Source of the DNA: a virus
Reading direction: 5' to 3' (one strand)
Length of the DNA: 13,064 nt
Virus genome (UHGV): UHGV-0254580
In this document: one piece after another, positions 156 to 3,732 of the stretch
Layout of the letters: every line of letters starts with the position of its first letter
Position numbering within the stretch: position 1 is the first letter of the stretch
Notes under the pieces: generated by a model
Told to the model about the DNA's origin: nothing
What the model saw: the letters and a program-made list of their open reading frames with translations, nothing else
Database searches by the model: none
Translations under genes and position numbers: made by a program

Positions 156-506
156 TTACTTAATCCGTTCACGGGCCGTCTTCGCCTTATGACACGGCCA
201 GCACAGACACTGTAGGTTACTGTCTGCATCGGTGCCGCCATGCGCTTTAGGGATGATGTGGTCAACGGTTTTCGCCTCGCGCACCACACCGGCACGCAGG
301 CACAACTGGCACAGGCCTTTGTCACGCTTCAGCACACGCGCGCGGATAACGTCCCACTTCGAACCATAACCGCGCTGATGACGGGACTGGCCAGACTTGT
401 ATTGCTTCCAGCCTTCGCTTTTGTGGCTTTCGCAGTAGCCTGATGGGTCAGTCGTGGTATGGCGGCAGCCGCGAACGCGGCAGGCTTTTGGGGTTCGTGG
501 AGGCAT
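156..506 (-). CDS. HNH endonuclease (phage packaging-associated type)
   Basis: 116-aa ORF with HNH core DHIIPKAHGG...N...CLCWPCHKAK and an N-terminal Cys pair (CRVRGC...CESH); sits at the packaging-proximal end with the same polarity as late genes. Confidence 0.8.
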   Translation of the reverse strand: MPPRTPKACRVRGCRHTTTDPSGYCESHKSEGWKQYKSGQSRHQRGYGSKWDVIRARVLKRDKGLCQLCLRAGVVREAKTVDHIIPKAHGGTDADSNLQCLCWPCHKAKTARERIK

Positions 507-633
507 CTATTATCCCTGTAGTTTTCGTTAAATATCTAACCATAACTGCAATCAGAAACCGCTTTAACACGGTTTGCTAAATAGACTTTTCAATCCAATG
601 AATAAACGGCAAGTAAATACCAATCGTTCATTT

Positions 634-1068
634 TCATTTGAATACAAACTGTTCTGAAAGAATATTATGACAAATACATTTCGCCTGAATACTATTATCT
701 CTCATTCTAATATATTCTTTGTGGGCAACAGATAAAGAACGACAACCGCTGTTTACACGTGGGTATTTTTCCAACATATGTTCGCATATCAAAAAAGCAT
801 TATTAATAGCATTTAATTTATGGCTTAACTCTCGTAGCTCGGCCCTTTTTTCAATACGAACATTACGACTAAGAGATAAAGGTAGCTGTGATAATGCATT
901 TGAATAATCAGCCACTGCCATTTTCAGAGCCATTTTGGCCTTCAGAGCCTCCTGTCGCCGCCAAACATTCATTGCCCAAAAACCTAATGTAACAGTTACA
1001 ATTGAACCTAAAGCCGATACAGCTGACCACACAGTTCCCCAAGGCCAGTTAAGTAATGTATGCCACAT
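634..1068 (-). CDS. Hypothetical membrane-anchored protein (moron, AT-rich island); start probably the second ATG preceded by GGAGG
   Basis: ORF-track ORF 634..1080 begins at a GTG; the MMWHTLL ATG pair lies just downstream of a GGAGG. Hydrophobic N-terminal segment (WGTVWSAVSALGSIVTVTLGFWAMNVW) followed by a charged helical region and a Cys-containing C-terminus. Local base composition is markedly more AT-rich than flanking phage DNA. Confidence 0.6.
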   Translation of the reverse strand: MWHTLLNWPWGTVWSAVSALGSIVTVTLGFWAMNVWRRQEALKAKMALKMAVADYSNALSQLPLSLSRNVRIEKRAELRELSHKLNAINNAFLICEHMLEKYPRVNSGCRSLSVAHKEYIRMRDNSIQAKCICHNILSEQFVFK

Positions 1069-1436
1069 CATAACCTCCACTGAATGAAAAGGTTAGTTTA
1101 TCGTAAGTGAACATCACTGGCACTATCTAAAGATTAGCTGCTCTACTAGTTGTACTCTCGATAATCTAAACAAAATGATACGTAATAAACCTGTTCATGA
1201 CTAGCTCTACTAGACACATGTTTAATCATCTACAAACGATTTGTACAAACTTCCACTTTCATATTGGTCCAAAAGGTTGGACTAATAGTTAATCACGATG
1301 CATATTTTATGTAAGCTGCTACATTACACTATAAAAACGCTGGCGTCTGAATTTAAGCCCATAAGTTTTATAAAATTATCATAATACACAGCTTTATTAG
1401 GCGCATTCGCACTGATAATGAAAAATATAACTCGAG

Positions 1437-1709
1437 CTATTTGTCTTTCGAATGCAAAATAGCGCGCCGTGATTCAATCTTTCTGATTCCAGTTTTATCA
1501 AAATTACATTGTCCCAAGGCTGACAATAGAGCAACATTCAACTCCAGACTGGTACCATACGTCAGCGGATTGGGTATAAACGGTACAGGAGTATCAGAAG
1601 TCAGGCTGGCTGGCAGTGGTGCCACCGGAGCGCTCACGTAAACCGTTCGCGTACTTCCGCAACCGGTCAGCAGCGGCAGCAGGCACAGGACGTGAAGCAC
1701 AATCATCAT
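1437..1709 (-). CDS. Rz1: Rz1-like outer-membrane spanin lipoprotein (o-spanin), overlapping Rz in a different frame
   Basis: Within ORF 1437..1937, an internal Met start followed by a signal peptide with lipobox LLTGC, a Pro-rich mature region (VSAPVAPLPASLTSDTPVPFIPNP) and a C-terminal Cys; it overlaps the 3' part of the Rz-like ORF and extends past it. Confidence 0.5.
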   Translation of the reverse strand: MMIVLHVLCLLPLLTGCGSTRTVYVSAPVAPLPASLTSDTPVPFIPNPLTYGTSLELNVALLSALGQCNFDKTGIRKIESRRAILHSKDK

Positions 1710-1986
1710 CCGCAACAGCCACTTTGATATCAGCCTGGGTTCTCTGTGACTCCAGTGCGATCTGCTGTTTTGCATGCTGGTTAGCCTCCAGAACTGTATT
1801 GACGAGTTGCAGTGATTGCAGGACGTTACGGGTAATGGCTGTTGCAGATTCAGCATTTTGTACAGCCTCATCAGCACGTTTCTTTTCGTGCTGATATTTG
1901 CTGTAGTAGTGGTTGGCAGACCAGATGAAAGAACCAATGACAGTAAAGAAGAATGCAGCGATAACCAGCTTATAGCTCAACTTCAT
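1594..1986 (-). CDS. Rz: Rz-like inner-membrane spanin (i-spanin)
   Basis: 130-aa ORF immediately after the endolysin with an N-terminal TM helix (LVIAAFFFTVIGSFIWSANHY) and a long helical periplasmic domain; position and architecture of phage Rz. The C-terminus is unusual, so a frameshift or alternative end is possible. Confidence 0.65.
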   Translation of the reverse strand: MKLSYKLVIAAFFFTVIGSFIWSANHYYSKYQHEKKRADEAVQNAESATAITRNVLQSLQLVNTVLEANQHAKQQIALESQRTQADIKVAVADDDCASRPVPAAAADRLRKYANGLRERSGGTTASQPDF

Positions 1987-2994: not shown

Positions 2995-3070
2995 TGGTGC
3001 TGGTTAACGGACTTGAACCGCTACCCATTCGCTTACAAGGCGACTGCTCTACCATTGGAGCTAAACCAGC
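2995..3070 (-). tRNA. tRNA-Thr (anticodon UGU), phage-encoded, with encoded CCA
   Basis: Manual cloverleaf on the minus strand: acceptor GCTGGTT/AACCAGC (7 bp), D-arm GCTC-CAATGGTA-GAGC, anticodon stem GTCGC/GCGAA with loop CTTGTAA (U33, anticodon TGT, A37), T-arm AGCGG-TTCAAGT-CCGTT, discriminator A, CCA. 76 nt. Confidence 0.6.
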
Positions 3071-3075
3071 ATGTT

Positions 3076-3150
3076 TGGCGGGACAGCGTGGACTCGAACC
3101 ACGATAAGAAGGTTAACAGCCTTCCGTAATGACCTTTATACGACTGACCC
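3076..3150 (-). tRNA. tRNA-Asn (anticodon GUU), phage-encoded, with encoded CCA
   Basis: Manual cloverleaf on the minus strand: acceptor GGGTCAG/CTGTCCC (one U-U mismatch), anticodon stem GAAGG/CCTTC (perfect) with loop CTGTTAA (anticodon GTT), T-arm CGTGG-TTCGAGT-CCACG (perfect), discriminator G, CCA. D-stem is only 3 bp. 75 nt. Confidence 0.5.
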
Positions 3151-3213: not shown

Positions 3214-3732
3214 CTAAATGGCTAATTGCATGTCAAGGCTTTTAACAGCAACATGCTTAACTTTCTCAACACGTTTACGCATTTTGAAAGCATTTTGCAT
3301 TGGTTGGTACAAAACAAATAACGACGCTTTCAGGATGTCGTCAATTTCGTTTCTACAGGTTGCCAGTGAAGGTTTTCTCCATCCCTCGCCACCACGTCCA
3401 CACATCTTGCGTGGCTTTGCAGTCGCGTGATAGTAGGATGCAATTGCTCGCTTAGATGAACCATGAGCGTAGTAGCTGAGGAGGATGCCAAAGGCTTTTT
3501 TGTCAATGCACATGACGGAATCGACGACCTGAGAAATCAACATTCCATCATCATCATTACACATTGGCCTTGTCATAATTCTTCCCGGCTCTACGCTCTC
3601 CATGAACTTAGCTATTACGCTGCTCATGCGCTTTTCCAGACGACCTGAATAAACCCATGCACCCCACAGTTCAAGCCAGCCATTCAGCCACTCGTGCTGT
3701 TCTTTGGTGAGGTTTAGTTCTCTTATGCTCAT
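3214..3732 (-). CDS. Putative late-gene antiterminator (Q-position protein; not lambda Q)
   Basis: 172-aa ORF directly after ninH (start overlaps the ninH stop) and upstream of the late leader, tRNAs and S, i.e. the Q position. Sequence does not resemble recalled lambda Q; the assignment is positional. Confidence 0.45.
   Translation of the reverse strand: MSIRELNLTKEQHEWLNGWLELWGAWVYSGRLEKRMSSVIAKFMESVEPGRIMTRPMCNDDDGMLISQVVDSVMCIDKKAFGILLSYYAHGSSKRAIASYYHATAKPRKMCGRGGEGWRKPSLATCRNEIDDILKASLFVLYQPMQNAFKMRKRVEKVKHVAVKSLDMQLAI

Follow-up and report, generated by a model that had tools for sequence, protein, structure and literature searches.

A promoter-like hexamer set against an anti-Shine-Dalgarno hairpin precedes an AT-rich moron gene in the late operon of a lambdoid prophage

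Morons are the main route for fitness, virulence, and defense genes in temperate phages, and how cargo that sits in a late operon stays off during lytic growth is rarely addressed. This question is raised by the UHGV virus genome UHGV-0254580, a 13,064-nt stretch of DNA that we refer to as the window, in which positions 507 to 1436 are a mobile cargo cassette (moron) in the late operon, between the Rz/Rz1 genes and the HNH-terminase genes. The cassette carries a minus-strand gene, an uncharacterized member of the moron class, whose product is predicted to be anchored in the inner membrane. Directly before the gene lies a short leader in which a hairpin pairs the Shine-Dalgarno (SD) sequence with an upstream arm and a hexamer resembling a sigma-70 −10 element abuts that arm. 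This conserved leader, a putative promoter-in-hairpin, is a new finding and is the part of the locus most worth following.

The cassette is recognizable both by its composition and by its absence from close relatives. The insert spans 930 bp from the Rz1 stop codon to the HNH start codon and has a GC content of 0.355, compared to 0.468 for the rest of the window, ranking lowest among all 930-nt windows of the 13-kb sequence (median 0.463). In 300-nt windows, GC content is 0.33–0.41 over ∼500–1500, 0.58–0.60 on the HNH side, and 0.49–0.53 in Rz, confirming the AT-rich island that a first-pass annotation of this DNA had placed at ∼510–1440. GC content at third codon positions is 0.285 in the cargo gene vs 0.48–0.64 in four flanking genes, and the orthologues, with GC contents of 0.37–0.44, are always lower than their own loci (0.44–0.55). 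Alignment to empty-slot relatives delimits the insert precisely, by the HNH start codon (506) on one side and the Rz1 stop codon (1437) on the other. In Escherichia coli PT62 and EC21Z-137 the slot is empty, with ∼27 bp between these two codons. A megablast search of 100–2500 against 5,426 complete E. coli genomes found the HNH and lysis flanks to be widespread and the middle variable, with the cassette of the window present in 27–28 of these genomes. Related E. coli prophages instead carry iss, a GrlR-family gene, a DUF2441 gene, or two hypothetical genes in the slot, and that of HK97 holds a KilA-N gene; iss, a bor homologue, sits on the opposite strand in the slot of a sister prophage. The proposal that the gene occupies a position of bor-type cargo is supported by this range of contents, empty slots included, between the same flanks. 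Separate acquisition of the block, also suggested in the first-pass annotation, is supported by the orthologues of 62–70% identity, which are flanked by lysis cassettes of four unrelated types and by three packaging modules that are likewise unrelated.

Near-identical DNA was absent from isolated phages in a DNA search, and a plasmid search returned a single weak match only. No intrinsic terminator was detected in the non-coding spacer between the gene stop and the HNH start (507..633, minus strand), nor any terminator-like site on either strand of 400–1700, so that the factor-independent terminator that a moron is expected to bring with it was not found here. That E. coli strain 1506 (L041, NZ_CP059288.1 3546263–3547449) lost this gene specifically was considered and rejected because the whole prophage end is truncated: an insertion/deletion involving the IS5-like element ISKpn26 cuts this prophage within the upstream spacer and removes the cargo gene along with the packaging/structural end.

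The maximal open reading frame (ORF) of the cassette is 634..1080 on the minus strand (148 aa). A product of 144–148 aa had been proposed, and comparative evidence favors the shorter form over the maximal ORF. The true start is best placed at the ATG at 1068 (1068–1066), giving a coding sequence of 144 aa plus stop at 634..1068 (minus strand), since the N-termini of orthologues, ATT alleles, SD spacing, and the RefSeq annotation of isolate F1267 agree. Every orthologue starts with one Met that is followed by Trp, Phe, or Leu and then Gln (MW/MF/ML-Q), and alleles with 97% identity have ATT in place of the ATG at 1071. The sequence GGAGG (1078–1074) lies 5 nt from the ATG at 1068 and only 2 nt from the ATG at 1071. 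The RefSeq start differs between near-identical genomes, with 144 aa in F1267 and 145 aa in EC1515, and the entries for the two start choices (1066–1071) are WP_016159276.1 (144 aa) and WP_225896238.1 (145 aa). The ratio of nonsynonymous to synonymous substitution rates (dN/dS) is 0.10–0.28 against orthologues with saturated synonymous sites, and the cargo gene codes for a real protein under purifying selection. As had been noted, the gene also has its own upstream non-coding region: 1069–1436 contains no ORF over 31 aa. Merely ∼60 nt of this 368-nt region, the last before the start codon, are conserved together with the gene and common to distant orthologues, and the remainder (1101..1436, minus strand) is a lineage-specific, AT-rich, non-coding spacer. 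A search of 400–1700 against Rfam gave no match.

It is within these last nucleotides that the leader is found. On the minus strand of the window, a −35-like GTGCCA (1118..1123) is followed by a spacer of 17 bp (1117–1101), the −10-like hexamer TAAACT (1095..1100; family consensus TAnAAT), which abuts the 5′ arm, the 5′ or anti-SD arm TAACCTTT itself (1088..1095), a hairpin loop of 9 nt (1087–1079), and the 3′ arm GGAGGTTA (1071..1078), which includes the SD sequence GGAGG (1078–1074). The two arms pair with two G·U pairs. The −35-like sequence belongs to a conserved palindromic element, of which it forms the 3′ half and of which AGTGCCAGTGATGTT at 1124–1110 is the remnant. A hairpin pairing the SD sequence with an upstream anti-SD arm recurs in family members down to 23% protein identity, and a hexamer of the form T-A-n-A-A-T (TAAAAT, TAGAAT, TACAAT, TATAAT, GATAAT) has its end, in most lineages, no more than 2 nt inside the 5′ arm or 3 nt ahead of it. 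The matched arms change by lineage, and include AACCTCC/GGAGGTT, ACCTCA/TGAGGT, CACCTC/GAGGTG, TCCCCTCA/TGGGGGGA, ATCCTTT/AAAGGAT, ATCCTCAT/ATGAGGAT, TTAGCCC/GGGCTAA, and also CCCCTC/GGGGGG. The orthologue hairpins have energies of −9.2 to −13.7 kcal/mol with z-scores of −2.9 to −4.3.

Because RNAalifold gave no consensus structure on a MAFFT alignment of 55 distinct family leaders, pairs were counted explicitly on the same alignment, with 500 shuffles and slid arms as controls. Cells were paired in 80.3% of cases, compared to 69.2 ± 1.4% after shuffling and 43–55% with slid arms; 52 cells had changed on both sides (25.6 ± 3.5 shuffled, 22–33 slid), and the covariation score was 0.389 (0.228 ± 0.018 shuffled, 0.11–0.15 slid). 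For all three measures, the observed values were reached by none of the 500 shuffles. The hexamer columns read T in 43/47 leaders, A in 43/55, a variable position, A in 40/55, A in 40/55, and T in 51/55, which, as judged by these counts, is the conservation pattern of a sigma-70 −10 element. Hairpin and hexamer occur together in 34 of 79 family leaders and in 12 of 726 other SD-bearing ORF starts of the same loci, a ∼25-fold difference; five of these 12 are extra family copies, and three or four precede other cargo proteins with a transmembrane (TM) helix and a helical domain. Since synonymous sites are saturated between these orthologues, the leader appears to be kept under selection. The first-pass annotation had suggested that the gene could be expressed independently of late transcription, and the −10-like hexamer, directly upstream and conserved family-wide, would fit this.

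These features suggest how the gene may control its own translation. The cargo gene is placed inside the Q-dependent late transcription unit by the minus-strand gene order of the window, which runs through replication O, primase-helicase, NinB, YbcO, RusA, and antiterminator Q (3214–3732) to the lysis genes and HNH. In the proposed scheme, the SD sequence would be sequestered in the hairpin by the upstream anti-SD arm, and the sigma-70-like hexamer directly against that arm would be the cassette's own putative promoter. By the usual rule, a start is expected ∼7 nt downstream of the hexamer, which would put it at ∼1085–1089 on the minus strand, inside or after the 5′ arm; mRNA from this promoter would be translatable because the anti-SD arm is left out of the transcript. 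Q-antiterminated late read-through from Rz1 would reach the gene, there being no terminator between the two, but would carry the whole hairpin and be poorly translated, so that the protein would be made mainly in the lysogen. We infer the promoter activity, the position of the start site, and the differential translation from sequence. As a whole, a moron cassette with hairpin-gated expression in the lysogen and an exclusion or abortive function at the inner membrane is the best explanation we can offer, to which we give slightly less than an even chance.

A precedent for such gating is known from phage T4. In the T4 genes e, soc, 49, and I-TevI, a hairpin that sequesters the ribosome-binding site (RBS), with a promoter in its 5′ strand, was shown experimentally, and Aeh1 mobE is of the same type (PMC3014915). 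The likeness lies in a paired SD sequence, a promoter element in or against the DNA of the 5′ strand, and the predicted outcome that long transcripts are silent and promoter-proximal ones translatable. The T4 hairpins differ in that they silence the early transcript, whereas here it would be the late one, in a temperate lambdoid phage and with a putative sigma-70-like promoter.

Several observations count against this gated reading. Apart from the lack of an RNAalifold consensus, the hairpin of the window is weak (−7.0 kcal/mol, z = −1.1) and taken alone is indistinguishable from shuffles. Its hexamer TAAACT is degenerate, matching four of six consensus positions, the −35 region is weak with 3–4 of 6 matches, and a generic promoter scan did not call the hexamer site. 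A second, upstream extended −10-like motif, TGyGATAAT, would yield transcripts that retain the hairpin. In one subgroup the stop codon of a methyltransferase gene lies inside the leader hexamer (TAGAATAA), which suggests translational coupling rather than silencing, and the invariant co-orientation of the family gene with late genes is also what would be expected of a late-expressed gene. One may also ask whether the hairpin and A/T-rich hexamer form a gate at all, or are a chance palindrome, an antisense intrinsic terminator, or an element of mRNA processing or stability. A terminator scan did flag an antisense-strand terminator (stem plus ATTTTAT) in two orthologues, and the missing consensus and the insignificance of the window hairpin by itself fit a non-gate reading as well. 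The covariation, however, is well above both shuffled and slid controls, and the element is ∼25-fold enriched over other gene starts. An antisense terminator was rejected on the variability pattern of the hexamer, where position 3 is free (A, G, C, T) and T1, A2, and T6 are near-invariant, as in a sigma-70 −10 element, a pattern that would break a U-tract; nor does any gene converge from the antisense side. We consider the non-gate readings quite improbable. An RNA thermometer was also set aside, as the orthologue stems (−11 to −14 kcal/mol) are too stable, though the U-rich arm of the window resembles fourU.

Upstream of the leader hexamer by ∼10–13 nt, several subfamilies carry a ∼25-nt element, GGCATTCAyTGAGTGCCTGyGATAAT, built around the inverted repeat GGCATTC-ACT-GAGTGCC. 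Intact copies were seen, by locus label and position, in L024:5945–5970, L115, L110, L101, L040:3869, L056:2791, L062:2868, L080:2475, L151:5987, and L155:5943, and the window keeps only a remnant at ∼1110–1124 (minus strand). With up to five mismatches, 17 matches lie upstream of family genes and 27 elsewhere, including before unrelated cargo genes of the same slot. The element may be an operator, a promoter, or a moron recombination junction. A sigma-54 promoter or CRP site in this palindrome was rejected on by-eye comparison with the consensus sequences, as spacing and half-sites do not fit.

Similar hexamer and anti-SD hairpin leaders stand before other cargo genes at L037:4254(+), L009:4042(+), and L120:492(+). 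In their products (194, 264, and 231 aa), an N-terminal region is combined with a single TM helix and an extended helical domain, and two of the genes lie in a Q-holin slot and encode proteins beginning MAWxGIPFP. The leader design may thus not be limited to the family of the cargo gene. A SRAP/YedK-like gene (MCGRFAQ…) at L009:12308(−) and L118:7030(−) is also preceded by a TATACT hexamer and, after it, a hairpin that pairs the SD sequence, which may be chance or a similar gate. The occurrence of the leader before other Q-holin-slot cargo, together with the shared palindromic junction element, hints that the design extends beyond the family. A broader claim would be that a sigma-70 promoter nested in an anti-SD hairpin is a general, undescribed moron design in lambdoid phages, one that would make late-operon cargo translationally invisible to Q-antiterminated read-through and expressed in the lysogen, and that the family is a new one of inner-membrane four-helix-bundle proteins for exclusion or abortive defense; we regard this combined claim as distinctly unlikely.

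The protein itself is named by full-length membership in phrog_6169, a small family without functional annotation. The profile hidden Markov model (HMM) matches with E = 4.4e-57 (residues 4–145 on profile positions 2–164/165), and all 33 diverse family members tested also match it. Orthologues with 60–70% identity occur in Hafnia, Enterobacter, Salmonella, and E. coli, and the family as a whole is found in prophages of E. coli, Salmonella, Enterobacter, Klebsiella, and Hafnia. An HMM search run exhaustively over 1.84 billion cluster representatives gave only 68 at E ≤ 0.001, nearly all of 130–200 aa, and in a search of proteins in phage records the sole matches were in Enterobacter phage CobraSix and in Salmonella phage 118970_sal3, neither of them annotated. 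No Pfam or NCBIfam entry matched the window protein at E up to 10, Pfam scans of it and the 33 members yielded nothing meaningful, and PADLOC-DB 2.0 gave marginal hits only (Csx19, E = 0.034; "1TM effector", E = 0.0071, in one of 33 members). Sequence search of the PDB gave no useful match, fold comparison no specific one, and a literature search no paper on the protein, its accession, or a hairpin-gated moron.

The first-pass annotation had described one N-terminal TM helix followed by a helical remainder, and both the hydrophobicity and an AlphaFold2 (AF2) model agree with this. The TM helix (∼residues 15–33 of 144, codons 970..1026, minus strand) is the most hydrophobic 19-residue window, and no second hydrophobic segment is present in the family. 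In the AF2 model, with a predicted local distance difference test (pLDDT) score of 82.9, the TM helix is continuous with helix 1 of a helical bundle. The window protein has no Lys or Arg before the TM helix and four in the next 15 residues, as in the family at large (mean 0.24 before and 4.5 in the 15 residues after). By the positive-inside rule, this enrichment clearly predicts an N-out/C-in topology, with a short periplasmic N-terminus and the four-helix bundle in the cytoplasm. Across 33 diverse members (145-aa numbering), W37, Q40, K46, K50, E97, and F144 are conserved; the most conserved part is a basic juxtamembrane motif, W-R/K-x-Q-E/D-x-L-K-A-K-x-x-F/L-K, and further conserved features are a Glu and a C-terminal F-V-F-K. 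The Cys-rich C-terminal segment reported earlier is present in this allele (Cys95, 109, 131, and 133) and is not conserved across the family, and a metal or disulfide motif was rejected given the non-conserved cysteines and the predicted cytoplasmic placement of the domain. A second i-spanin was likewise rejected. Rz-like i-spanins are type II N-in/C-out proteins with a periplasmic coiled coil and a cognate o-spanin, in contrast to the predicted N-out/C-in window protein; a complete Rz/Rz1 pair already lies upstream, and relatives that share the lysis cassette lack the gene. The first-pass annotation is otherwise upheld in both observation and interpretation, the points corrected being the start codon, the cysteines, the topology, and the missing terminator.

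Where the family gene sits bears on what it may do. Among 154 family loci, many of them redundant, with neighbors classed using a panel of Pfam-labeled proteins, recognized flanking genes are co-oriented with the family gene without exception. In 90 loci the gene stands between an upstream lysis gene and a downstream packaging gene, and in 12 another cargo gene takes the upstream place. The CobraSix group (20 loci) has the gene between TerL and portal, and two loci have it between Mu-F-like and scaffold-like head genes. At least four unrelated types of lysis cassette are associated with it: lambda S holin, GH24 endolysin, and DUF2570 spanin; holin_2_1, Phage_lysozyme, and either DUF2514 or Phage_lysis; holin_8, holin_3_7, and GH19; and holin_3_1 and GH108. 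Packaging modules of at least three kinds occur as well (HNH/P27 TerS; Nu1-like/GpA; ParB_N with TAGT and Terminase_2/6), and no partner gene is constant across the loci. CobraSix carries integrase, excisionase, a Q-like antiterminator, and RecT and is therefore taken as a temperate lambdoid, as are all host phages examined in detail.

Taken together, the cytoplasmic bundle on an N-out anchor, the occurrence in temperate lambdoids only, dispensability, and the probable lysogen-restricted translation fit a factor that the prophage expresses and that works on the inner side of the membrane, and they speak against both a Bor-like role at the surface and a core role in lysis. Superinfection exclusion or abortive defense at the cytoplasmic face of the inner membrane, expressed in the lysogen, is our favored guess and a tentative one, possible though doubtful. 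It is weakened by the absence of similarity to known exclusion or defense proteins (Pfam, PADLOC, and hhalign against HK97 gp15) and by a fold, the generic four-helix bundle, that gives no functional pointer. An unlikely alternative is that the gene makes an accessory protein late in lytic growth, for example in lysis timing or in membrane events of packaging and release, with the hairpin throttling a potentially toxic product or coupling it to an upstream ORF. The shared strand at all 154 loci and the lysis-upstream, packaging-downstream setting of 90 would follow from such a role, as would intergenic distances of at times only 24–80 nt, the lack of a terminator between the gene and Rz1 or HNH, and the methyltransferase stop that overlaps the leader in one subgroup; small membrane proteins encoded after the spanins are lysis factors in some phages, such as the releasin of phage Mu. 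However, the gene is missing from near-identical prophages with the same lysis cassette, and it has no fixed lysis partner, occurring with four unrelated holin/endolysin/spanin types and, in ∼20 loci, between TerL and portal or in head genes. Simple throttling would also leave the conserved tight spacing of hexamer to arm unexplained.

Exclusion or abortive defense in the lysogen is also to be weighed against two further roles. It seems improbable that the protein is an anti-defense or host-takeover factor that neutralizes a membrane-associated component of host immunity or stress from the cytoplasmic side. Genes of the Acb2/Tad1-hairpin family (PF24729, anti-CBASS/Thoeris sponges) adjoin family members in the same lysis-packaging slot, and the bundle resembles peptide-binding bundles such as FAT domains, generically only; the protein nevertheless has no homology to known anti-defense proteins and no consistent partner gene, and silencing of late read-through, if real, would better suit a function at the lysogen stage. 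These Acb2/Tad1-hairpin neighbors were seen at L045:4863–5147, L046, L097, L115, L122, and L155–L158. As for a lysogenic-conversion factor like Bor or Iss, altering the cell surface for serum resistance or adhesion, the gene occupies the slot of iss in the sister prophage and is AT-rich cargo that probably has its own promoter. We hold this role to be very improbable, as the protein has no lipobox, signal peptide, basic n-region, or match to the Pfam Bor family, and its whole folded domain is predicted by the positive-inside rule to be cytoplasmic and not exposed at the surface.

Among described systems, the gene resembles the HK97 gp15/gp22 and lambda bor/lom morons as an extra gene that is absent from some otherwise collinear genomes, distinct in composition, and located in a late operon, probably with its own promoter. 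The moron of the window differs in having no sequence relation to gp15, Bor, or Lom, and no terminator of its own was found. To our knowledge, an anti-SD hairpin with an embedded −10 element is not part of the classical moron description. The exclusion proteins HK97 gp15, P22 SieA, and T4 Imm are, as here, small inner-membrane proteins from accessory DNA of a phage or prophage, whereas the window protein is predicted to combine one N-out/C-in TM helix with a ∼110-aa four-helix bundle in the cytoplasm. Comparison with HK97 gp15 by hhalign gave a probability of 0.4%, and SieB/Imm-type families were unmatched in the Pfam scans; P22 SieA was not compared. Bor and Iss are outer-membrane lipoproteins, and the window protein shows neither homology to them nor a lipobox.

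The surroundings of the cassette are those of a lambdoid prophage with HK97-like packaging. Downstream of antiterminator Q, the late-operon leader carries genes for tRNA-Asn(GTT) (3076–3150) and tRNA-Thr(TGT) (2995–3070), followed by the S holin (2430–2753), the endolysin (1970–2446), and the Rz-like i-spanin (DUF2570; 1594..1986). The flanks of the slot are the Rz1-like o-spanin gene (lysC; 1437..1709), as annotated by RefSeq in near-identical loci, on the upstream side, and the HNH endonuclease gene of the packaging module (156..506) on the downstream side, all on the minus strand. In near-identical genomes a P27-type small terminase comes after the HNH endonuclease.

Other loci hold further cargo around the family gene. 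Two diverged family paralogues share the slot in L103 (5001.., ∼7115..) and in L164 (4923.., 5509..), each with a hexamer-hairpin leader. A distant paralogue of 184 aa, so diverged that tblastn gives no direct link to the window protein, occupies the same Rz-HNH slot in many prophages (L123–L146 and L161, E. coli-type), 249 nt downstream of Rz and 54 nt upstream of HNH, and is found in Salmonella phage 118970_sal3 at 76310–76861. Upstream of the family gene in L040 (3456–5976) is a four-gene cassette encoding proteins of 133 aa, 193 aa (MptE-like), 302 aa, and 205 aa (Methyltransf_23), which is also present in L033, L057, L062, L079, L080, and L085. Downstream lie ParB_N and a TAGT (transglycosylase-like) gene and then the terminase, which suggests a module for modification of DNA or of something else.

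If neither the gate nor a role in exclusion or defense holds, the locus is an ordinary uncharacterized moron. The protein family has no annotation and may reasonably be put forward as a possible new exclusion or defense factor. If true, the promoter-in-hairpin gate would extend the T4 mechanism to temperate phages and would provide a rule, readable from sequence, for recognizing lysogen-only cargo in enterobacterial prophages.

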